Positions 9,667 through 58,652 of a stretch of DNA of 64,000 nt are shown here, piece after piece. Numbering within the stretch: the stretch's first letter is position 1; each line of letters starts with the position of its first letter. This DNA is from Chiloscyllium plagiosum (lineage: Eukaryota). The notes beneath the pieces were generated by a model. It was not told where the DNA came from. It searched no databases and worked only from the letters and a program-made list of their open reading frames with translations. The position numbers and the translations under genes were made by a program. The DNA lies in assembly GCF_004010195.1 (NCBI RefSeq), contig NC_057718.1:90997353-91061352 (forward strand), in the 5' to 3' direction.

Positions 9667-12600
9667 TGTGACATGAATGGAAAGATGGAGCTCAGTTAAA
9701 GTCATTAAAAAGGAAGTAACCATGATAGCAACATCAACTCAAATAATCAAGAAACACAACAGCCTTTTAAACCTCTGAGACATCAAAGATGAAGTTGAAA
9801 GGCAACAGAGAACCACACCCAGTCTCTCTTCATTCAATTACAGAATAATGGAGTGTTGTCGTCATCTTTGCAGAGGTCCTTGGAAAAGGTCGACACATCT
9901 GTCTTGCATAATAGTTACTGTATCTGCTCATTTTGTGTAAAAGATGGTTGGTTTTAATTGAAAGACATTAATTGTAGAGAATTACAGTCTTTGGACCACC
10001 ATGTCTGCACCAGTCATCAAACACCCAATCATTCTAATCATATTTTCCTGCACTTGACCTATAACCTTTTATGCTGTGACATTTCAAGTGTTCATCTCGC
10101 TAGTTCTTAAATATCTTGAGGGTTCCCACCTCTGCCCTTCTTTCAGACAGTAAATTCCAGATACTCACCACTCTCTGGGTGAAAGAAGTTCTTCCTTAAA
10201 TTGCCTCTAAAATGCCTGCCCCTTTACCTTAAATCTACTTATCAATCCCTCTACTAAGGGGAAACCTCTCTTTCTATTTGTCCTATTAAAGCTCCTCATA
10301 ACTTTGGATACCTTGATTGGATTATTCACATTTTTAACTACCTCTCTAGGTAATCAGCTTCTGTACATTTTATGCACTACTGTATTTGAAGTCCAGATCA
10401 ATTATCTGCAGTTGGTTATTAACTTCTCCTTTCAATCTGAGTTGAGGACAGTACGTAATGGACTGAGTTTTAGGCAAATGCAGTTTCCCTTCTATAAAAC
10501 AGTGAAGGTGACTTTGTTGTAAGGAGTGCGCTGGGTCTTTATTGGAAGCTTTTAAAAGTGATCTAAGAAAAGACTTCTCATGTTTTGTAGGCAGAAGTGA
10601 GTACTACAGATTAGAATCAAGATTAGAGTGGAAAAGCATAGCAGGACAGGCAGCATCCGAGGAGCAAGAAAATCGACATTTCGGACAAAAGCCCTTCATC
10701 AGGAATCATATTTTGTCCCAAGCCATTAACTAACTCCTGAACAGGCCGAATGAAGAGGCTGTGTGGCTCCTCTCGCGACCACTCCAGTTTTTGTGAAAGA
10801 CTGTCCAAAGCCCTGGAAAAATTGTACAGCGGAAGCTGAGAGAAAGTGTGGAAAAGATTCACAGTTGCCAGTATTAAAAGGAACCAACAATTGGCAAAGC
10901 TTCAGCAGGCTGGGATCTTTTCTGTTGAAAAGGAGCAAGACAAACCTGAAAGAGGAAAGTAAAATTCTACAATGGATTTGTTAGGGTGGGTGTGAAGGAC
11001 CTGACTTCAGTTGTATTTCGAGTGAGTTTATTAGTTGCTAAACATGAGAGAAAGTAATGATGCAACATATCCACACAGGTTAGAAATGAGGTGTGATTCC
11101 AAAAAAATGGGGTAAAAACCGAGTCAGTCTCTGGGTTATTCTTGAAGAGTAGATAAAAGAACGTTGCTGGTTAAACAGTTGGTGTTGAGATCCTTGGCTT
11201 TGCAGTTACTTGAAATGCTTTTGTCCTATTTTCATTTGATTGGCTAGCTGCCTTCTAGGACTCAGAGCAAGATAGTTCTTTGACTGCAATGCAGGGGTAA
11301 CCAGTTTGTCCTCTGTAACTTTCACAAAACTAGACTTGCTATGCATGAGTACTTCAACCTAATGCCACACATGAGCCCCTTAGCTCACTAGCGTGCCTTC
11401 TTCCACTAGGGAACGTAGACAAAATTGAACTAGCTTTTAATCCATGTTCTAGTGTACTCGCGAAAGAGGAGGACATAAAATGTCTCTCACTCAGACTGCT
11501 GTCTTTTTTTCTCTCATCATGTCCCCAGTCTGAGATAACACCCAGAAATTACTGTTTACTTTTTAGTACTTTTCTCCCTTTAAGCCCATGCCTTTGAAGA
11601 TTTCTTAGCACCTCATCAGGTGTGACATTCCAGGATGTGACTGTCCTGATAGTCACTGAATTTACATCCACAGTCACCTTGGCCATGCGTCCTTTCAAAA
11701 AACATGTTGGCATTAAAATATTCAATATGTCCAAAGGTGATCTGGGGTTATGATTCATGATGATGAGAATTGATATGATAGACATTGTTGAAGGACCTGA
11801 ATATTAGGCCTTACTCTTTCAAAGCCCCAGGCTGTTCTGCCCAGTACCCCACATGACATCATTGTAGGAGCTGCTGAAGGCACTCCTCAATATTAACCCT
11901 TTCAGACCTTGTACAACAGAAGACACTAGAAAAGGGAACAGGCAAGGCCATGGTGGGATTTGCAAATACAGATGAGAATTTTAAGGCGTTGCTTAGCTGA
12001 GAGTGAATGTAGGTCTAGGAGCACAGGATTCTGTGTAACTGGGACTTGGTGTGAGTTGTGAGCAGAATTTTGAAAGATCACTAGTTTATATAGGGTATGG
12101 AACATTCCTGGAGTGCACGGTAATAGTCAAACTCCTAGGTAACAATGGCATGAATAAGGGTTTCGGTAGCAGATGAGCTAAGATGGGCAATGTTTCTGAG
12201 GTTGAAGTAGGCTTCTGTGAATATTTACGTGGAGGAATTTCCTTACCCTGAATACGGGAAGGAATACTCAGTGCTCAAAAGATTGACTTGAGATTCCCTT
12301 GCACACAAATGCCCAGATGTTCAAAAACCAGCTTAAGGCCAGCCTATATGTTATCTCCCAGCGTAGTAAAAGTGAAGGGAAGGAATGTTCAAAGTTGATG
12401 TACTACACTTTTAAGTTTTGGGCTTTGTTTGTTACCCTTTTTATGATAATTCTGTACTATCTGAAAAGTTACTACAGCATTCATGATCTTACTACTCACT
12501 TATCTCAGACAGCTGTAATTAATAGACAAATTAGTTAAAGCAAAAAGCACCAAGATCTCGAAGGAGAGAGATCCAGAACTGTCTGCTTCTCCTTGCACAC

Positions 12601-12772
12601 ACGTGCTTTTTAATCCTACACATTTGAGATGGGTAGTATTTATTCAATAGCAAGTAACATCTCAATCAAAGAAATGTGGAACTATTAAGACATCAAGTAA
12701 TTTGTTATTCGGATAACTTGGGGGCATATCCTTTCATGAATTACAAAGGTATTCAAATTACCCACTTTAATA

Positions 12773-12948
12773 CAGAGGAACCTTGATTATCCAAAGGACA
12801 TGGGCAGGCAGTATTTCGTTCGAATAATCGAATTCCGGATAATCGAATGCCGGATAACATAGTTTAGCCGAGCATCAGGACCTTGCGATCTTACCGGATA
12901 ATCCAATATTTGGATAATCAAATGCTGGACAATCGAGGGGCCTCTCTA
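12773..12948. mobile_element. MITE, same family as 52843
   Basis: TA|cagaggaaccttgattatcc TIR, multiple ggataa motifs, degenerate right TIR. Confidence 0.8.
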
Positions 12949-13749
12949 CAATATTGAAGAGTGTGTAATCTGAGTGTTTTTGATGACTTGGACTTTTTTT
13001 GTGGTTCTCAATTATTGCTTTTCCAGGCATGGCTTTAACATTTGACGAAAGGAATATTAAAGAGAGACGTCCTGTATAAATGAATATTTTTGTTGTCAGC
13101 TTTCTCTTCTCCTTTGTTTGAAAATGTCAGTTCTTTCAGTATGTTATGATTCTATGGATGTTAGGTGCCAGCTTGTACCTTTAACGAAAATGATAATTAT
13201 TCATTCATAGTAACCTATGACAATGAATACTGTAGGTGGTTTATTTGGAAACATCACAAGGGAAGTGCCACGTGATGCCCAAGCTTTCATTGCCAGCAGG
13301 GAATGCTGGATAGTAGTTGGGAATCAGAACCCTGCTCACTATTTGTTCAGAAGTTTGATTTGAATAAGATTTGGTACTGCAAGGAGATACAAGTATCCTG
13401 AGGAGTAGGTTGAACTTGCTGGAACTATGGTTACGATGATGTAAAGCAATTTTAAGTTGTATCTTTTGATCCCCTCTAATGGCTTGTCACGTCTTCTGAA
13501 ATATCTTGTGACATTTTACCATGCAAAAGACAAATGCAAATTGGTGTTCTCGTTATAGAGTTAGTCAGAACCATTGTTGATTAAACTAGTATTACCTGTT
13601 TTAATTCCTTCGATTACTGTAAACCTCATTAAATCCTAAAATTAATTGGCATGCTACTCATTGTGTTCGTTAAGTGCCACACCAATGAATGAAAGTTGGA
13701 GGAACCATTCACATAATTAATAGCTTTAGTATCATCAGTATTGTTTATA

Positions 13750-14415
13750 CAGGGAAACCTCAATTATCCGAACGAGCTGGGCGGGCATTATTTGGTCCGG
13801 ATAATTGATTATTTGGTTAATCGATTAAATGCCTTTCCTCTGGGGCTCGGAGCTTTTAAAAGTCTGCTCCCTGTTCAGGAGAATAGCAGCAGCGTGCGAG
13901 ACACCCACCAAACCCGTGCCCCGCCTCCCAGCACAAAGCGCGCGAGCCCCCGCCTGCACCAGAACCCCATCCAACACCGCCCCCCCCGACCCCTCAACAC
14001 CGCTCCCCCGCCTGCTCCCCCATCCCCGTCCAGCACTGTCCCCACCCCCTCTCCTGCCTGTACACAAACAACAAGATTGCTGCTGCTGCCTTTGTGTGGT
14101 AAGTGTCCAAATACACACACACACCTTATTTACTACAACTTTTTGACAGGTTCCACCTATGTCCTGTACAGGAAAATGTTGGAGAGATTATCTAGGGACA
14201 GGGTTTTAGGGTACACCCCTCTGTAGAACTCCAGGGAAAGTGTGAGAAGAGAGAGGGAGGGCAGGTGGTCAGTTATTTGGAGACGGTGCCTGTTTAATCA
14301 CTGTAAACAAAAGACGCGATCACTGTTGAAAACACATCTTTGATGTAATGTTTCTGTTTGGACCTCTGGATCTTCGGATAATCTGATTTTCAAATAATTG
14401 GTATTTGGATAATCT
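13750..14415. mobile_element. Non-autonomous DNA transposon, same family; right end cut by a SINE
   Basis: TA|cagggaaacctcaattatccgaa left TIR; ggataat repeats at the right end; GC-rich internal segment. Confidence 0.75.
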
Positions 14416-15062
14416 GGCGACACGGTTACTCAGTGGTTAGCACTGCTACCTCACAGTACCAGGGACCTGAGTTTGATTCCAGCTTCAGGTCACTATCTGC
14501 ATGGAGTATGCATATTCTCCCCCTGTCGGCATCTGTTTCTTCCAGGTGCTCTAGTTCCCTCCCACAGTCCGAAGATGTGCAGGTTAGGTGGATTGGCCAT
14601 GCTATGTTGCCCATAGTGTCCAGGGATATGCAGGCTAGTGGCATAGTCTTAGGAAATGCAGGGTTACAGGGATAGGGTTTGGGTAAGATTTCTTCGGAGG
14701 GTGGTGTAGTGATTAGAACCAGGTAGATCTTGTTGACTACAAGATCCTTGATTAGGTTTGTTAACCTGGGCCAATCAGGATCCCCTGGATGACCAATATT
14801 AACAGGGGATGGGTGCTGGGGAAAAGTAAGCACTACTGCTGTCAGGAGGTAGTGTGGGGTGATGTAATGAAAAGAAAAACAAGTGTAAACCAAAAAAAAT
14901 TAACAGGGGATTTAGAATCCCCTCAATTCAGGGGACTGACTCTAAGCGGCTGGCCACAGCCAGTGTACAGTGCATAATTTAATAAAGAGAGACTTGGTGA
15001 CAGGACTGTGGCCACTGTGCAGTTGTTTCAGTCAGTGTAGACTCAATGGGCTGAATGGCCTC
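14416..15062 (+). mobile_element. HE1-type tRNA SINE (split by LTR 14705-15030)
   Basis: ggcgacacggttactcagtggttagcactgct head; gtgcaggttaggtggattggccatgct body. Confidence 0.85.
14705..15030 (+). mobile_element. Solo LTR inserted in an HE1-type SINE
   Basis: TGTAGTG..TTTCA ends, AATAAA; similar to the 43847/44333/59602 LTRs; the SINE tail resumes at 15031. Confidence 0.75.
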
Positions 15063-15069
15063 TTTGTGA

Positions 15070-15533
15070 GCCGGTATGGTGGCTTAGTGATTAGCACTGC
15101 TATCTCACAGCACTAGGCACCCTGGTTCGATTCCAGCCTCTAGCGACTACGTGCAGTCTCCCCATGCCTGCATAGGTTTCCTCTGGGTGCACTGGCTTCC
15201 TCTCTCAGTCCAAAGGTATGCAGGTTAAATGGATTGGCCATGCTAAATTGCCCACAGTCTCCAGGGATGTCCAGACTAGGTGGATTAACCATGGGAAATG
15301 AAGGGCTACAAGGATAGGGTGGGGGTTGGGTCTGGATGGGAGGCTATTTGGAGGGGAAAGTGAGGACTGCAGACGCTGGAGATCAGAGTCGAAAAGTGTG
15401 TTGCTGGAAAAGCACAGCAGGTCAGGCAGCATCCGAGGAGCAGGAGAGTCAATGTTTCTGGCATAAGCTGTTAGAGAAGCAGTGTGGACTCGATAAGCTG
15501 AATGGCCAGTTTGCAAACTGTAGGGATTCTATG
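15070..15533 (+). mobile_element. HE1-type SINE interrupted by a Penelope-like fragment (~15355-15468)
   Basis: A/B boxes (tggcttagtga; ggttcgattcc) and CR1-type tail ctgtagggattctatga. Confidence 0.8.
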
Positions 15534-16039
15534 ATAAACTGAAGCAGAGATCCAACAGGTCATTTATTGAGATGTGATATTAGAAGTTAGGGTGAGTATG
15601 ACTTTGTGTATGTAATGAATTAATATTGGAGTAGTTTGCAAGCTGAGTAAAGTATTTTAACTAGATCGCACTGGATGTATTCAAAGCCCTGATCTGGAGT
15701 GTTTTTGAATTGTGCAACACCTGCCGCACCCCCACCACACAACCTACTCTTGTATAGGGACACTGAGGCCAATCGCAGTGTCCTAACCACTGCGTTTGCA
15801 GAAATCACTTTACACAGACTCAACATCAAAGCTGCGTGTTGGTTTGCGTGACTTTTTTCTTTCAGTTTGCCATTCCCCTTTCCAATTTCATGTATAATTG
15901 CTACGCTTCTGAAGAAGTGTCAGATTGCATGGTTCATCCAACTTTCCACTCCTACGTACTGGGAAAATTATTTCCAGTTTGGATTTCCTACTGCATGAAA
16001 GAGTTGGGAAGAGAGAGAACTTTCAGTCTATCTAAGAAA

Positions 16040-16430
16040 TTTGCATTTTTATATTATGCTTTTCTCAACCATCAGACATCGCAGAGCATTACACAGCCAA
16101 GTAAGTACTTTCTGAATGTGGTCACTGTTACAGTATAGGAAGTGCAGCAACCAGTGAGAGCTCAACAAGTTCCTGCAAACAGTAAAGTGTGGTGTGGATT
16201 TGAGGGATAAATATTGTTCAGGACATCTGGGGTTCATTCCCTCTTTGAAGTGTTGTCTTAGCATCTCTTCCATCTCCATGAGCAGGCAGCCACTTTGAAT
16301 ATCTTACCTGAAAAGCCTATGACAGTCTGACTAGAGTGTCAGCCTTGACTATTGCGTACAAGTCTTGGAGTGGTACCTGAATCCATAACCCTCTGATACA
16401 GAGGTGAGAGAGTAATGATAAGTGGGCAAT
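16040..16430 (-). mobile_element. Deu-domain SINE, old
   Basis: Homologous to 45410-45785 (gagggataaatattg..; tggagtggtacctgaatcc B-box complement). Confidence 0.6.
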
Positions 16431-16460
16431 TTTCTCAACCACTGGTCTGCCCAGGACCAT

Positions 16461-16923
16461 ATAGAACATAGAACAGTAATGTACAGGAACAGGCCATTCG
16501 GCCCACGATGTCGTGCCAACCATGATGCAAAATTAAACTAATCCCTTCTAACCACCCCAGTCCATAACCCTCCATCGCTTGCATATTCATGTGCTTATTT
16601 AAAAGTCCCTTAAGCACCCTTATTGTATCTGCCTCCACCACCACCCCTGGCAGTGCAGTCCAGACTCCTATTACACTCTGCGTAAAAAAAGACTTGTCCT
16701 TCATGTCTTCTTTGAACTTTGCCCCCTCACCTTAAATGCATGCCCCCTATTATTAGATGTTTCAAGGCTGGGAAAAAGATTCTGACCATCAACCCAACCT
16801 GTGCATCTCATAATTTATTATAGACTTCTATTAGGTTTCCCCTCAGCCTCCACCACTGGAGAAAACAACCCGAATATTTCTAGCCACTTATTGTAGCTCA
16901 TAATTGTAATCCAGGCAGCATCC
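16461..16923 (-). mobile_element. CR1 3' end
   Basis: FFTQSVIGVWTALP on minus; (atagaac) tail. Confidence 0.85.
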
Positions 16924-17159
16924 TATATGTGGGAATGGAGGTTTCCTTCAGACAAGGTGTTTTTATCATTTTAAAAATGGATTGTCACTCAAAGGTGACT
17001 TGGGAAAATAAATGTCAAATCCGCATCCTTTTGAGAGTTATTCTAGGTCCATTTGACGTTTGTATTTGACATTCATCTCGTCTTATATTATGTCCAAAGA
17101 TAACACCAGTTAGGGTGAGGTAATGTCATTAATTTCAGTAGATTGTTGAACCTCTCTTC

Positions 17160-17920
17160 AGAGTCATAGTCATAGAGATGTACAGCATGGAAACAGACCC
17201 TTCAGTCCAACTCGACCAGATATCCCAATCCAATCTAGTCCCACTGCCAGCACCCAACCCATATCCCTCCAAAGTCTTCCTATACATATACCCATCCAAA
17301 CGTCTTTTAAATGTTGAAATTGTACCAGCCTCCATCACTTCCTATTCAATATATGCACCACCCTCTGCATGAAAACATTGCCCCTTAGGTCTCTTATATC
17401 TTTCCCCTCTCACCCTAAACCTATGCCCTCTAGTTTTGGACTACCCCATCCCAGGGAAAAGACTTTGTCTATTTATCCCATCCATGCCCCTCATGATTTT
17501 ATAAACCTCTGTAAAGGCATCCCTGAGCCTCCGATGCTTTAGAGAAAACAGCCCAGCCTGTTCAGCCTCTCTCTTTTGCATCCTTGTAAATCTTTTCTGA
17601 ACCCTTTCAAATTTCACAACATCCTTCTGATAGGAGGGAGACCAGAATTGCACACAGCATTCCAAAAGTGGCCTACCCAATGTCCTGTACATCTGCAACA
17701 TGACCTCCCAATTCCTGTACTCGATACTCTGACCAATAAAGGAAAGCATACCAAACACCACCTTCACTATTTTATCTATCTGAAACTCTACTTTCAAGAG
17801 CTATGAACCTGCACTCCAAGGTCTCTTTGATCATACCGTTAAGTGTATAAATTGCGCTAAGATTTGCTTTCCCAAAATGCAGCACCTCGCATTTATCTAA
17901 ATTAAACTGCATCTGCCACT
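17160..17920 (-). mobile_element. CR1 LINE 3' end
   Basis: ORF 17441..17797(-) RPLLECCVQFWSP. Confidence 0.9.
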
Positions 17921-18589
17921 TGAAAGCGCATTGACTCTAAAGTGAAAATTGTTCCTTTTGGGCTTTTGCATTAATTTTTTGATGTTCTGCCATGACCACT
18001 TGGTGGCTTTAAACAAGAAATGAGAATGTCTGGTTCCCAGAGGTTTACCGAGTTTCCAAGAGCCAGCCATTTGGTACCGCTGTGAGAATAAAAGGCCAAA
18101 TGTTTCTTTTGCTTTTTACATCTCGGTTTCTTTCCTGTACTGAACCAAGAGCCATTATTGAAATTCTGAACCTGTTCGACCATTGGGATGAAGCTTAGGT
18201 TCCATCATCTTCTCTGTGGCTCAGTAGTCTGCACCAACATTCCTCTGATCCCACCATGACTATTGTAAAAGCAGGTGTAAAAGTAGGAGTAAAAGTAAAT
18301 CAGATGGACGACTTGAACCTGCTCACCTGCTTTGTGGCAATTACAGCCTAGAGCACTGGGTCACCTTGACAATTTTGTCAAATAGGATAGTAAGCATGGT
18401 TAAATATATATGTCTGGAAGGGACTGGATAAGCATGTTGTGGAACCTATTTCTGTAGTGCTAGAATTCTCAAGTGAGCTATTAACCAGTAGCCTGGAAAT
18501 AAATAACACTTGGATCCCAAACAGAAGTGCATTGGCAAAGGAAAGTTGTTTGATAGGGGACCCAACTTTCCTTTTAAATTACCTCATTA

Positions 18590-18786
18590 CGAGTGATTCC
18601 TGCAGAAGTAATTTTCGTCCTATTGGCTGACCCAGCTGAGAGGCTTGCTGTGAGAACCTGGACAGCAGCCCACAGGAAAAAGGACGCCCTTTACTCTGTT
18701 TCTGCAACAGTCTCTGCATGGTGCAGAATGCTGTTTGTGTTGCACTTCTTGTATCATGTTTAAAACATTATCCAGGGCTTCTTTAG
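18590..18786 (+). promoter_or_regulatory. Candidate promoter/first exon
   Basis: Unique sequence with a reverse CCAAT (attgg, ~18622) and GGAA motifs, ending at a consensus donor TAG|gtaagt (18787). Start is not defined. Confidence 0.3.
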
Positions 18787-19432
18787 GTAAGTGTGTTTAG
18801 ACCGTTGGCTCTGCTAATCAGTCCACTGTTAGTATTTTGTTTCGCTGTTATTCATAAGAGGTTGATTTACATTAACTCTGATCAACGGAAGGCTGACTAA
18901 ACATTCAAAGCAGTTTATTAATTGCATATGCAAGGTTTCCTCCTTTTTTCGCCAGGCTTTACCAGAAATGTTGCAGTAACTTTTTAAAAATTCTTTCATA
19001 TTTACGATAATGGTCAGTAATGAAATACTTTATATATTATTATACAAATTAATTTTGAGTTTGGCTTGATCATGATGTGGTACTGCAAGTAGACACAAGT
19101 ATCCGAAGGATTACATTGAACTTGCTGGAACTATGATTGTAATAATGTAAACCAAAGTAAGTTGTGGCTGTTGAACCCCTTTTAACGGTTTGTCATATGT
19201 CTTGTAATGTTTTATGATATAAAAGTCACTAAATGGAAGTTAGTATTTTCACTGTAGAGTTATTCCTAGAGTCTGATGATACTTAAGCTGGTATTACCTG
19301 TTCTAATTCCTCTGATTATTATAAACCTTGTAATGTCTGAACTTAACTGGCACATTCACATTGTTTTCGAAAGTGCCACACCAATGGTTGTAGGGTGGAG
19401 TAACCATTGATGTAATTAACGGCTTCAGTATC

Positions 19433-19568
19433 GAGGTAAAAACAATGACTGCAGATACTGGAAACCAAAGTTTAGATTAGAGTGGTGCTGGAAAAGCACA
19501 GCAGTTCAGGCAGCATCCGAGGAGCAGTAAAATCGACATTTCGGGCAAAAGCCCTTCATCAGGAATAC
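19433..19568 (-). mobile_element. Penelope-like terminal-repeat fragment with 10-bp TSD
   Basis: TSD cttcagtatc at 19423-19432 and 19569-19578; homologous to 50352-50478. Confidence 0.85.
19531..19566 (-). ncRNA. Minimal type I hammerhead ribozyme motif
   Basis: AUUC-CUGAUGA-A-GGGC UUUU GCCC-GAAA-UGUC-GAUU. Confidence 0.6.
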
Positions 19569-20036
19569 CTTCAGTATCATCAATACTTATTGTACTGTAT
19601 GGATTGAGGCTGAGATTCAACTGGGAATTTATTGAGATATAGAGTTAAAGGTTAGAGTGAATGCAACATTACGTAAGGAATAAGTTATTTTAGTATTGGA
19701 GTACTTTGCAAGCTTAGTAAAGCACTAATTGAATAAGATTTTGCTAGATATATTCAAAGTGCTGATTGGGACTACTTTTTAAGTTTTGTCCAGCATTTTA
19801 GTGTCACCCAGGATAATGGGTACCCAAAGGTAAAATGCTATCTGCATTTTGAATTTGACTGTCTGTTCTCATATGGCAAACAATGAACTACAATTTAATT
19901 TCTCCACATTTAATATCTTATGAAAAATGTCAAAATGAGTTATAGTGAATGCTTTGACTATTAGCTAATCTGTCTTGAGGATTTCTTTTTAATTTTTGTT
20001 CATTTCTAATCATTTTCTTATTTTTTAAAATCTTAG

Positions 20037-20092
20037 TGACACCGTGACTCCTAATGGTGTAGCTGTCCACAGTGGATGAAACGTAAATACGG
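20037..20092 (+). other. Candidate non-coding 5'UTR exon of the RIN2-like gene
   Basis: Long T-rich tract plus tcttag| acceptor and GG|gtaagt donor flank 56 nt of unique sequence. No transcript evidence. Confidence 0.45.
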
Positions 20093-20789
20093 GTAAGTGC
20101 AATTTTCTGCTGGTTTACATCTTATTGAAGTCCTACAACACGAACACACAAGCTGCTGCACATTCAGAGCCCCTCAATGTTAAAATAACAACTTCCTAAT
20201 TGTTGAATAAATGCAGAGAAAGATGAAAGCAAGCTCATGTAGAGCATAAACACCAGCAGAGACCTATTAGATAAAATGGCCTGTTTCAATGCTGTAAATA
20301 AAATGTAAAAAAAGATTGAGCTGTTAACTTGCATTAGAACTGGACTAGCTCAGAAGTTATGTGACACCAGGTTATAGTCCAAAAGGTTTAATTGAAATCG
20401 CAAGCTTTCAGAGCACTGCTCCCTCATCAGATGACCTGACAAGCTTTCGGAGCGTTGCTCCCTCATGATTTAAAATGAATCCTTTGGGCTATAACCTGGT
20501 GTCATGTGACTTCTGACTTTGTCCATTGGCACCATTGGACTGGAATAGCACAAATGTTGATCAGGTGTGAGAAACACACAGACCTATGTAGTGCATCTGC
20601 ACTGGCCAATGAATACAGCACCTGCAGGTAAATCAGCTTTATTATGTAGTCATTTGCATTAAAGCATTATTAGTTTATGATATGATATTGCTGCTTCAGC
20701 ACTTAGTGATATAAGCGTAGATTTGACAGTGTTAAAGGAGGCACTTGACGGTTAATTTAAGAATATGAGAAGATCCTTTTTAAACAACT

Positions 20790-21025
20790 AGAAGAAAGTG
20801 AGGATTGCAGATGCTGGAGATCAGGGTCAAAAAGTATGGCGCTGGAAAAGCACAGTCGGTCAGGCATCATCTGAGGAGCAGGAGAGTTGATGTTTCGGGC
20901 ATAAGCCCTTCATCAGGAATGTGGGCTTATTACTGATGAAGGGCCTCTGCCCAAAATGTTGATCCTCCTGCTCCTCGGATGCTTCCTGACCTGCTGTGCT
21001 TTTCCAGCACCACACTTTTCTTGAC
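20790..21025. mobile_element. Inverted pair of Penelope-like terminal repeats
   Basis: Two arms in opposite orientation around ~20925; imperfect direct repeat (cc-Tn-aaacaa) on both flanks. Confidence 0.8.
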
Positions 21026-26139: not shown

Positions 26140-27803
26140 TACCTTAGCAGGGATGACCGTGAAGGAACAATGGCAGATATTTCTGTGTATAATGCAGAAG
26201 TTGCAGGATCAGTTCATTCCTAAAAGGAAGAAAGATCCCAGGAGGAGGCATGGGCAGCCGTGGCTGACGAGGGAAGTTAAGAAACATATAAAGTTAAAAG
26301 AGAAAAAGTATAACATAGCAAAGATAAGTGGGAAAACTGAGGACTGGGAAGCTTTTAAAGAGCAACAGAGGATTACTAAGAAGGAAATACGCAGAGGAAA
26401 AATGAGGTACAAAGGTAAANNNNNNNNNNNNNNNNNNNNNNNNNNNNNNNNNNNNNNNNNNNNNNNNNNNNNNNNNNNNNNNNNNNNNNNNNNNNNNNNN
26501 NNNNNNNNNNNNNNNNNNNNNNNNNNNNNNNNNNNNNNNNNNNNNNNNNNNNNNNNNNNNNNNNNNNNNNNNNNNNNNNNNNNNNNNNNNNNNNNNNNNN
26601 NNNNNNNNNNNNNNNNNNNNNNNNNNNNNNNNNNNNNNNNNNNNNNNNNNNNNNNNNNNNNNNNNNNNNNNNNNNNNNNNNNNNNNNNNNNNNNNNNNNN
26701 NNNNNNNNNNNNNNNNNNNNNNNNNNNNNNNNNNNNNNNNNNNNNNNNNNNNNNNNNNNNNNNNNNNNNNNNNNNNNNNNNNNNNNNNNNNNNNNNNNNN
26801 NNNNNNNNNNNNNNNNNNNNNNNNNNNNNNNNNNNNNNNNNNNNNNNTATTAGTAATAGCATTAGCAAATTTGCTGATGATACTAAGCTGGGTGGCAGGG
26901 TGAAATGTGATGAGGATGTTAGGAGGTTACAGGGTGACCTGGTCAAGTTAGGTGAGTGGGCAGATGCATGGCAGATGCAATTTAATGTGGATAAGTGTAT
27001 GGTTATCCACTTTGGTGGCAAGAACAGGAAGGCAGATTACCACCTAAGTGGAATCAATTTAGGTAAAGGGGCAGTACAGAGAGATCTGGGGGTTCTTGTA
27101 CACCACTCAATGAAGGTAAGCATGCAGGTACAGCAGGTAGTGAAGAAGGCTAATAGCTTGCTGGCCTTCATAACAAGAGGAATTGAGTATAGAAGCAAAG
27201 AGGTGCTTCTGCAGTTGTACAGGGCCCTGGTGAGACCACACCTGGAGTATTGTGTGCTGTTCTGGTCTCCAAATTTGAGGAAAGACATTCTGGCTATTGA
27301 GGGAGTGCATGCGTAGGTTCACGAGGTCAATTCCTGGAATGGCGGGGCTACCTTACGCTGAAAGACTGGAGCGACTGGGCTTGTATACCCTTGAGTTTAG
27401 ACGCTGAGAGGGGATCTGATTGAGACGTATAAGATTATGAAAGGATTGGACATTCTGGCAGTAGGAAGCATATTTCCACTGATGGGTGAGTGCTGAACCA
27501 GAGGACACAGCTTAAAAATAAGGGGTAGGCCATTTAGGACAGAGATGAGGAGAAGCTTCTTCACCCAGAGAGTGGTGGCTGTGTGGAATGCTCTGCCTCA
27601 GAGGGCAGTGGAGGCCCAGTGTCTGGATTCATTTAAGAAAGAGTTGGATAGAGCTCTCAAAGATAGTGGAATCAAGGGTTATGGAGATAAGGCAGGAACA
27701 GGATACTGATTAGGAATGATCAGCCATGATCATGTTGAATGGCGGTGCAGACTCGAAGGGCTGAATGGCCTACTCCTGCACCTATTGTCTAGTGTCTATT
27801 GTC
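26140..27803 (+). mobile_element. CR1 LINE spanning an assembly gap (N 26420-26847)
   Basis: PWLTREVK linker before the gap; SKFADDTK..LVRPHLEYC after it; (ctattgt)n tail. Confidence 0.95.
26420..26847. other. Assembly gap (N run)
   Basis: Run of N. Confidence 1.
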
Positions 27804-38031: not shown

Positions 38032-38073
38032 ATGTCAGGCCCAGTTGAGCTGCAACGAGGGAGTTTTTTTAAG
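38032..38073 (+). CDS. RIN2: RIN2-like, first coding exon (exon 37987-38073; MSGPVELQRGSFFK)
   Basis: Polypyrimidine tract plus ttttag acceptor ending at 37986, ATG at 38032, donor AAG|gtattg at 38074 (phase 0). RGSFFK matches the RIN2 N-terminus as I recall it (..DKRGSFFK|LIDT..). Confidence 0.85.
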
Positions 38074-45409: not shown

Positions 45410-45785
45410 AAAAATTTTCATTTATTTAACACTTCCATGACCTCAGAGGATATCCCAAGGCACTTTAGAGACAATGCAGAGGATTTGAAGTTTAGTTGCT
45501 AGTGCAATGTTGTAGTAGACATGTGACGATGAGCAGATAGAGTTTGAAGGATAAATATAAGCCAGAACACTGGGATATCTCCACTGCTCCTCTTTGAAAT
45601 ATTGCCATTTAATCTTTACGTCTGCCTTAGAGGGCAGACTGGGTTCCTGGTTAATGTTTCATTTGAAAAGTGGCACCTCTCACATTTCTGCACTCCCTTC
45701 ATTCCACACCAAAGTATCAGCCTAGATTTTGTGCTCAGGTCCTGAAGTGAGACTTGAAGCCACAACCTGCCAACTGAGCAAGGAC
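45410..45785 (-). mobile_element. Deu-domain SINE (SacSINE1/AmnSINE-like), old
   Basis: Minus strand reads gaggtgccactttt..gtctgccctct..gacgtaaagat..atggcaatatttcaaagaggagcag..atatttatcc, resembling the Deu domain, followed by an L2-like tail. Confidence 0.7.
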
Positions 45786-50351: not shown

Positions 50352-50965
50352 AGAAACTGAGGACTGCAGATGCTGAAGATCAGAGCTGAAAATGTGTTGC
50401 TGGAAAAGCGCAGCAGGTCAGGCAGCATCCAAGGAGCAGGAGAATCGATGTTTCGGGCATAAGCCCTTCTTCAGAAATGAGGAAAGTGTGTCCAGCAGGC
50501 TAAGATAAAAGGTAGGGAGGAGGGACTTGGAGAGGGGGAGGGGGGGCATTGGAAATGCGATAGGTGGAAGGAGGTCAAGGTGAGGGTGATAGGCCGGAGT
50601 GGGGTAGGGGCGGAGAGGTCAGGAAGAAGATTGCAGGTTAGGAAGGCGATGCTGAGTTCGAGGGATTTGACTGAGACAAGGTGGGGGGAGGGGAGATGAG
50701 GAAACTGGAGAAATCTGAGTTCATCCCTTGTGGTTGGAGGGTTCCCAGGCGGAAGATGAGGCGCTCTTCCTCCAACCGTCGTGTTGTGGTCTGGCGATGG
50801 AGGAGTCCAAAGACCTGCATATCCTTGGTGGAGTGGGAGGGGGAGTTGAAGTGTTGAGCCACAGGTTGGTTGGGTTGGTTGGTCCGGGTGTCCCAGAGGT
50901 GTTCTCTGAAACGTTTCGCAAGTAGGTGGCCTGTCTCCCCAATATAGAGGAGGCCACATCGGCCT
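50352..50965 (-). mobile_element. Penelope-like element 3' end: GIY-YIG endonuclease remnant plus hammerhead-bearing terminal repeat, truncating a CR1
   Basis: ORF 50638..51123(-) contains CGLLYIGETGHLLAKRFREH..PVAQHFNSPSH..RRLEEERLIFRLGTLQPQGMN (PLE GIY-YIG). Hammerhead core at 50443-50478 on the same strand. Confidence 0.9.
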
Positions 50966-51064
50966 TTTGTAATGTGATGAGAAGGTTGTGTGTTTGTCCC
51001 TTTTGGTGTGAGCACTCCCAGCACAGGCCAGCTTTGAAATATTGAAAAGTCAACAAAATATATG

Positions 51065-51456
51065 CTGTTTTTGCTGGGGATTATTTGATCGTGGGATGTG
51101 GGTGTTGCTGGCTGGATTGGCATTTATTGCTAATTCCTAATTGGCCCTTGCTCTGATTGGCTTGTTAGGGCCATTTCAGAGAGCTGTTCAGAGTCAACTA
51201 CATTACTGAGAGTCTGGAGTCAAATGTAGACCAGAAGGGAAAGGATGCCAGATTTCCTTCTCCAAAGGACATTAGTGAAGCAGATGGGTTTTTGTAACAA
51301 TTGACAATCATTACATGTTTGCCATTAAACCAGCTTTTTAATTTCAATTTTTTTAAAAATTCCAATCTCACCATCTGCCATAGTGTCCCCATAGAATTAA
51401 CCTGGGATTCTGGATTACTAGTCCAGTAACGTACCCACTATGCCTCTGGCTCCCAC
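51065..51456 (-). mobile_element. Same SINE family as 29620 (minus strand)
   Basis: Reverse complement of head, body (gatttccttc..aaaggacattagtgaa) and tail (tgggatgtgggtgttgctggc). Confidence 0.75.
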
Positions 51457-58373: not shown

Positions 58374-58566
58374 AGCACATGGGGATATGGATTATGACTA
58401 TCAGAAAGAAGAAGCTGCTAAGTGCTGGATGAGGGATTCTGGCTATGAAAGCTTCTTATGTAACCTCAGCATCTTCGATCGGCTTCTACACACCCATCCA
58501 GTCTGGCTACATCTCAGTCTGAGTGATGAGGATGCTCTGCGTATTCTGCAGCCCGAGGATGCTGGG
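58374..58566 (+). CDS. RIN2: RIN2-like coding exon leading into the SH2 domain (AHGDMDYDYQKEEAAKCWMRDSGYESFLCNLSIFDRLLHTHPVWLHLSLSDEDALRILQPEDAG)
   Basis: Acceptor gagcag| at 58373 is phase-2 compatible with the previous exon; donor GGG|gtaagt at 58567. RDSGY..LSI.DRLLHTHP.WL.LSLS is the RIN2-family motif. The gene continues beyond the window. Paralogue assignment (RIN2 versus another RIN) is by recall. Confidence 0.9.
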
Positions 58567-58652
58567 GTAAGTTGTTAACCTGACTCTTTTTTTCAACAAT
58601 AGGTTACATATCTATTACAATTGTGAAACGACATGCATTATCCTACACCTGA

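Follow-up and report, generated by a model that had tools for sequence, protein, structure and literature searches.

An old direct duplication, cut by later repeats, beside the putative RIN2 5′ region of Chiloscyllium plagiosum and the weak codon-like pattern between its copies

Results

Two diverged direct copies

We analyzed a stretch of 64,000 nucleotides of Chiloscyllium plagiosum DNA (NC_057718.1, positions 90,997,353 to 91,061,352; hereafter the window, with positions counted from its first letter), in which a segment lying near what is putatively the 5′ region of the RIN2 gene is present twice. The pair is a direct duplicate in the same orientation, with copy A at 13352-13745 plus 15535-15712 and copy B at 19058-19432 plus 19579-19790. 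The copies share 76% identity over 546 gap-free columns, with 131 differences and a Kimura two-parameter (K2P) distance of 0.295. When the window was compared with itself by BLAST, the left parts (13352-13733 vs. 19058-19432) aligned over 391 columns at 72.4% identity (E 4e-50) and the right parts (15540-15709 vs. 19605-19782) over 178 columns at 69.7% identity (E 9e-17); neither BLAST nor nhmmer detected a third copy within the 64-kb window. Identity is spread evenly between the copies, with no ultraconserved core longer than 20 bp, and 4 of the 13 gaps in their alignment are multiples of three. The GC content of the copies is 31-36%, compared with 38-42% in most of the neighboring unique DNA, and two control stretches are also at 34-35%. 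The duplication is real and old; the initial annotation, made from the letters alone, had described two diverged direct copies, each split by transposable elements, and our alignments reproduced them at the positions it gave.

Both copies were later interrupted by repeat insertions (Table 1). The 1.8-kb block in copy A opens, after a TA at 13746, with an end like that of a miniature inverted-repeat transposable element (MITE), which recurs at 12767 and 52839 and is followed by copies of a repeat resembling a short interspersed element (SINE) and of other repeats. About 8 bases of copy A are apparently missing at this junction. The 136-bp insert of copy B is flanked by a perfect 10-bp target-site duplication (19423-19432 / 19569-19578). 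The insertion points, 13745 in copy A and 19432 in copy B, are ~15 bases apart in homologous position and were entered by unrelated repeats; the near-coincidence may be chance. Besides the 3′ piece of a long interspersed element (LINE), the spacer between the copies contains a more decayed LINE tail at ~16490-16920. We take these elements to be MITE, SINE and LINE from self-matches within the window, translations of open reading frames (ORFs) and general features of such families.

Table 1. Positions of the duplicated copies, their insertions and associated features in the window
Feature	Position	Strand	Basis
Copy A, left part (3′ part on the minus strand)	13352..13745		72% to 19058-19432
Nested repeat insertions splitting copy A	13746..15534		Window self-BLAST, junction sequences
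Copy A, right part	15535..15712		70% to 19605-19782
Decayed old repeat, containing 16290-16367	16199..16390		72%, 189 columns, to 45543-45767; 0/1000 shuffles
LINE 3′ piece in spacer	17168..17935	-	Many window copies; ORF2-like frame 17441-17800
Copy B, left part	19058..19432		72% to copy A; near single-copy depth, two DNA runs
SINE-like high-copy insert in copy B, 136 bp	19433..19568		Target-site duplication; depth
Copy B, right part, starting with second target-site copy	19569..19790		Match to copy A; single-copy depth
Probable third colinear piece of duplicated unit	19904..19977		55/72 columns match 16290-16367
Internal exon, 56 nt, AG ... GTAAGT, outside duplication	20037..20092	+	Splice signals; X15 contig depth ~63

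Extent of the duplicated unit

To the left of the copies, the flanks gave no alignment (score 26, equaled in 77% of shuffles). On the right, the match between 16290-16367 and 19904-19977, first noticed among ~170 region comparisons, had a score that 0-3 of 1000 shuffles reached, depending on which of four settings was used, and the two pieces were each other's best or near-best match among the ~1140 tiles (1141) of the window. Their K2P distance of 0.28 is comparable to that of the core (0.28-0.34). On the copy A side the piece lies within a decayed old repeat that is presumably SacSINE1/DeuSINE-like. The copy B piece gave no match to the relative of this repeat at 45543-45767 (285-658 of 1000 shuffles scored as high); it stands nearer to copy A's repeat than to that relative. 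This suggests, as far as the alignments go, that host DNA bearing an already decayed repeat was duplicated, and it speaks against two independent insertions; since the 72-base match is colinear and falls inside an old repeat, the duplicated unit would appear to be host intronic DNA. A 14-base direct repeat (13/14), at 19651-19664 and 19939-19952, joins the right part of copy B to its flank piece, where it overlaps some of the B-specific changes.

Depth and divergence of copy B

Four of the 24 listed sequencing runs were mapped on 18700-20199 at 80% likeness, an interval that holds copy B and not copy A. Depth over copy B was 4.7-9.6 in run X1 (left flank 4.7-6.6) and 12.8-38 in run X10 (left flank 12-16), an AT-rich bin at 18950-18999 being an outlier in the left flank (39 in X1, 87 in X10). 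Depth over the SINE-like insert, by comparison, was 10^6-10^7 vs. 5-38 in its flanks. Copy B is thus near single-copy in two organisms, where relatives less than 80% alike could still exist, and it is not a young high-copy repeat; a match to a high-copy non-coding repeat, named in the initial annotation as refuting its reading, is not borne out for copy B by depth at this likeness. Over 19050-19150, where copy B depth is slightly raised, copy A is 81% alike to it, and the excess would be explained by allelic contigs or by copy A itself.

When organism A was compared with organism B, 9 of 405 sites were different in the left part of copy B, as against 23 of 1030 in two neighboring contigs (Fisher p 1.0). 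Because copy B diverges as its neighbors do, there is no sign of constraint on it today. In run X15, which is RNA by guess and comes from organism C, contigs of depth 3-6 cover 18950-19464, i.e., the left part of copy B and the adjoining left sequence, with zero depth at 18700-18949 and 19600-19949. These contigs could represent pre-mRNA, DNA or a faint antisense transcript; none of the listed runs is recorded as RNA containing copy B. Run X21, read to 2%, gave no coverage of copy B and no useful coverage of the exon next to it.

Codon-like pattern between the copies

The initial annotation had inferred that the pair are relics of two paralogous coding sequences on the minus strand, on the strength of similar peptides with mainly third-position differences. 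All the quoted peptide pairs are present in the minus-strand translations of copies A and B, and in the LYNENTNLH/LYSENTNFH block 8 of 9 differences do fall at codon position 3; for this 35-bp block, a run of such a kind arose somewhere in 65 of 5000 column shuffles. The generalization did not hold. In the other blocks the differences are distributed over positions 1/2/3 as 2/3/2 (RFTV...), 5/2/6 (DTKA...) and 8/4/6 (FKNT...), so that three of the five quoted blocks lack a clear third-position excess, and the DKPL block is too short for a tally. With the frame chosen freely in each block, the third-position count was 57 of 118 vs. 52 in shuffles (p 0.03-0.07 under four settings), and codon periodicity, whose absence over the full alignment the initial annotation had named as refuting, fell just short of significance (p 0.06).

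A clearer result was obtained for the nature of the amino acid changes. With the best frame taken in each of 10 blocks, the BLOSUM62 score summed over altered codons was 137 on the minus strand vs. ~71 in shuffles (p 0.000-0.008 under four alignment settings). The minus-strand z was 2.3-3.1 (p 0.000-0.016) with three null models, including those that fix either copy, and three stop penalties, including none; the plus strand gave a null result (z -0.03 to 1.1). Taken by parts, the signal is strong on the left (z 2.72) and weak on the right (z 1.27). One frame stays in phase in both copies from RFTV... to LYNEN..., across a net 3-base gap, and the best frame of the 3′ block (...NHSSSKFN...) is not a continuation of the DKPLEG frame. 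On the minus strand, then, codon changes are of a more conservative kind than in shuffles, which may reflect a weak real coding excess. A 99-codon stop-free frame on the minus strand (15620-15919), one of 83 frames of at least 90 codons in the window, extends from the spacer to within copy A, where it follows the FKNTPDQG frame; it had no match in the ESM Atlas.

Of five statistics, only the score for conservative changes reached significance with every one of the four alignment settings; synonymous codons gave p 0.13-0.20, stop depletion p 0.27-0.40 and shared stops p 0.69-0.71. The ratio of nonsynonymous to synonymous divergence (dN/dS), which the initial annotation had proposed as a check, was 0.32 in frames chosen by rule vs. 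0.34 +/- 0.06 in 300 shuffles (42% as low), and 0.37 in hand-picked frames, and thus did not bear out selection. Read in the frame of the initial annotation, copies A and B have TAA codons at two matching places (13563/19262 and 13518/19214), and a further TAA is common to both (15566/19631). Along a hand-picked minus-strand path of 144 codons there are 3 stops in copy A and 6 in copy B, and all three of copy A are TAA at the same codons in copy B, with a rough probability of 8e-4 if they were acquired by independent loss. Avoiding the shared TAA codons in one frame requires frameshifts that are themselves common to both copies. The shared stops are therefore a poor fit with two genes that remained intact until after their divergence.

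We also compared a likelihood model of codon selection followed by decay with one of neutral DNA, averaging over 24 parameter sets. The log Bayes factor (lnBF) for copies A and B was -3.7, or -2.0 when shared frameshifts were allowed, compared with +7.8, +3.5 and +23.0 for three LINE ORF2 pairs and -3.9 to +0.8 for three SINE pairs. Genetic code tables 4 and 6 raised it to about zero at most, table 6 being the highest of the three codes (-0.01 to +0.70). In the path test, table 4 gave z 2.4 vs. 1.9-2.2 for table 1 and 1.2-1.55 for table 6; tables 2, 4 and 6 brought no clear gain. Of the coding inference, the conservative changes on the minus strand stand, while dN/dS, the likelihood model and the shared TAA codons speak against it; a coding past is suggested and unproven, and divergence under coding selection is not established.

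Searches for relatives

The initial annotation had offered a lost gene pair, an endogenous viral element or an unrecognized transposon protein as the source; no family was matched in any library tried, which for transposon proteins meant Pfam and comparison of the window with itself. In Pfam, the best result for 24 six-frame readings was DUF249 (E 0.029; 14.5 bits vs. a cut-off of 27.4), partly over a SINE tail. The best E was 0.014 for 13 readings in PHROGs, and 8 readings gave no match in NCBIfam. Three profiles against PDB sequences reached at best E 0.21, 0.3 and no match, respectively. In word-indexed searches of longer proteins, none of 344, 861 and 8 candidates, respectively, reached E <= 10, and two natural stop-free frames found no usable match in the ESM Atlas. 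Scans of IMG/VR, which reach close relatives only, confirmed 0 of 18, 0 of 34 and 0 of 84 candidates. Rfam at E <= 1 gave one match over 12000-21000, outside the copies, and the ends of the duplicate carry no end-to-end terminal inverted repeats. An AlphaFold2 model was uninformative (mean predicted local distance difference test, pLDDT, 39.7).

Several candidates were rejected. HMMER, with a profile of 100 positions whose final third is probably in the wrong frame, returned a sole match among 1.84 billion representatives, P0001 (E 3.4e-4), which is a singleton translation of a tandem repeat with no tblastn match to the copies. Scans of metagenomes and genomes yielded 158 and 47 candidates, of which 2 and 1, respectively, passed, all as pattern matches of 16-25 residues without colinear support, and three phage records found by blastn were chance matches of 30-33 bases. 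Since the protein queries were short (36-170 residues), partly in doubtful frames and run with no positive control, the lack of homologues is weak evidence. Literature searches, at the level of listings, gave nothing on this locus, on which the catalogues of endogenous viral elements (EVEs) that accompany PMC11089739 and PMC11521997 could bear.

Host gene and other features of the window

The 56-nt exon (Table 1) may be one of the 5′ exons of the host gene, in what is putatively the 5′ region of RIN2, and the contigs of run X15 have next to no depth on either side of it. Further plus-strand exons near 38035-38073 and 58400-58567 were located by RIN-family motifs. With the spliced exon and these downstream exons on the plus strand, copies A and B most likely lie inside 5′ introns of the host gene. 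We presume this gene to be RIN2, as the initial annotation did; a PDB search with the presumed RIN2 exon gave at best Csk (E 0.79). At 13026-13075 (+) a good splice acceptor, with pyrimidine tract and CAG, precedes an ATG, and no clear donor was seen there.

Elsewhere in the window, a minus-strand frame at 50638-51123 appears to resemble the GIY-YIG endonuclease of a Penelope-like element. An assembly gap of 431 N (26419-26849) lies inside a LINE, and an imperfect palindrome at 20341-20525 consists of two inverted copies of a short repeat.

Discussion

Origin of the pair

We favor, with modest confidence, the reading that a proximal duplication took place long ago in host intronic DNA and that the copies are now neutral. 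The duplicated segment would measure at least 570 bp, and perhaps 1.2 kb if it extended into the already decayed repeat; it would have been copied once, in the same orientation, to a place ~2.7 kb away, start to start, once recognized later inserts are removed. The route was likely repair-type template copying, or else a tandem duplication since eroded by insertions and deletions. Both copies would then have drifted mostly neutrally to their present K2P distance and been cut by repeat insertions. What was copied may have been non-coding DNA, or else the relic of a coding sequence that was dead by then, in which case the stops common to both copies would be explained. The codon-like pattern would be mostly chance combined with the free choice of frame in short blocks, a procedure that yields a convincing-looking dN/dS of ~0.35 from shuffled DNA. 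Whale and zebra shark are reported to have a dS of 0.061-0.111 after ~50 million years (My) (PMC13100897), a rate at which a K2P distance of 0.295 would correspond to ~130-240 My if neutral. A low mutation rate has been reported for sharks (PMC10587355), and whale shark SacSINE1 copies are described as ~75% identical to their consensus (PMC5499810), consistent with the age of the repeat presumed above. On this account little hangs on the locus, which would be one more old local duplication.

Several observations weigh against a neutral history. The minus-strand signal persisted without the 35-bp LYNEN block (z 2.36, p 0.017) and with frame continuity enforced (z 1.9-2.2, p 0.043 or 0.007). Its full value of z 2.88 (~2.9) was matched in 3 of 150 neutral simulations, on either strand, in the same pipeline, and lies within the range of four LINE ORF2 control pairs (z 1.1-9.0) and above that of six non-coding pairs (<=2.0). 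Negative as it is, the lnBF exceeds that of 55 and 58 of 60 shuffles (reached by 5 and 2, respectively). The LINE controls likewise show no excess of gaps in multiples of three, which weakens the gap count, and shared stops occur in 2 of the 4 (2 and 4 stops, with stop-blind choice of frame), which weakens the point drawn from them. Most of the flanking sequence is unalignable, as would be expected if selection had kept the core alone. The third piece itself does not discriminate between a neutral unit and a selected core, since its score is attained by 62% of 200-bp pieces simulated with 59% identity, and its three-way pattern is lopsided (15 sites common to A and B, 12 to A and the family copy at 45543-45767, and 1 to B and that family copy, i.e., 12 B-specific vs. 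1 A-specific).

These points give most room to a coding past, which we regard as doubtful and still worth serious attention. A host-resident gene of one exon, or a domesticated ORF, lying antisense within the 5′ introns of RIN2, would have been locally duplicated, and its copies kept for some time under purifying selection before both died through frameshifts, stops and repeat insertions. Put more broadly, the pair would be the last traces of two paralogous coding sequences, from a lost shark gene or an unknown virus or transposon ORF, of a family absent from the searched libraries, diverged under selection and dead for more than 100 My. The conservative changes on the minus strand, the RFTV...-LYNEN... 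frame in phase in both copies, the mostly unalignable flanks and the low copy number agree with this. It has to accommodate TAA at three in-frame positions of both copies (or, failing that, frameshifts common to both), a dN/dS no different from shuffles, a negative lnBF and the absence of relatives from the libraries, the fold prediction being uninformative. If it were true, slow shark evolution would have left the fossil remains of a protein family unmatched in the libraries searched, which could be recovered by comparing the locus across sharks and rays.

It is unlikely that the copies are fragments of an old and now rare transposon, retroelement or virus that inserted independently from two diverged lineages, with the protein-like divergence arising while the elements were active. 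The size of the signal resembles that of diverged LINE ORF2 pairs, the copies are low in GC relative to most neighboring unique DNA (two control stretches are equally low), and paramyxovirus-like, benyvirus-like and hepadnavirus EVEs have been reported from cartilaginous fish (PMC11089739, PMC11521997). However, copy B is near single-copy at 80% likeness, terminal inverted repeats and IMG/VR matches were not found, and stops are shared; that a rare element should land twice, 2.7 kb apart, on the same strand and with the same extent, is improbable in itself and sits badly with the colinear flank piece.

Far less probable is a duplicated non-coding element, such as an enhancer of the host gene, formerly constrained and since without function: the core aligns where the flanks do not and lies among the host 5′ exons, yet copy B shows no present constraint, both copies are cut by repeats, and differences are evenly spread with neither an ultraconserved core longer than 20 bp nor an Rfam match within the copies. 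Foreign DNA in which TAA encodes an amino acid (table 6, a code of ciliate or diplomonad type) and which carried two tandem paralogs is hardly credible, even though the three shared stops are all TAA, one CAG/TAG pair would be silent, the DNA is AT-rich and table 6 has the highest likelihood of the three codes, because its lnBF is no better than neutral (attained by 6 of 60 shuffles), its path test falls below that of table 1, the flank piece points to host DNA and the prior is very low.

Comparison with known systems

DNA transposons and MITEs are recognized by terminal inverted repeats and many genomic copies; the pair has no end-to-end inverted arms, and the depth of copy B is low. Non-retroviral EVEs of cartilaginous fish, as described in PMC11089739 and PMC11521997, are likewise low-copy, AT-rich, decayed and intronless; they are defined by similarity to viral proteins, and none was found here in IMG/VR, PHROGs or Pfam, searches that reach close relatives only. 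The pair resembles duplicated pseudogenes in being local and on the same strand, in its stops and frameshifts and in the conservative changes on one strand, and differs from them in that no parent gene was found, stops are common to the copies, dN/dS is not below that of shuffles, and no start, splice or poly(A) anatomy is apparent.

The closest likeness is to the proximal repair-mediated duplications, or "doublets," reported from human and other vertebrates, which measure up to 619 bp and lie mostly within 5 kb (Pace et al., 2009, PMC2671141). Copies A and B similarly form a linked, non-adjacent, low-copy pair with a core of ~570 bp and a spacing of less than 5 kb; the core of 546 columns at ~2.7 kb falls within the described range (50-619 bp, within ~5 kb), and the depth of copy B agrees with a low-copy source. 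Unlike these duplications, the pair is far older (76% identity), and breakpoints, donor/acceptor polarity and an empty site are no longer visible. If the third piece is included, the unit of ~1.2 kb in copy A exceeds the maximum for proximal repair-mediated duplications and is more like an eroded tandem duplication.

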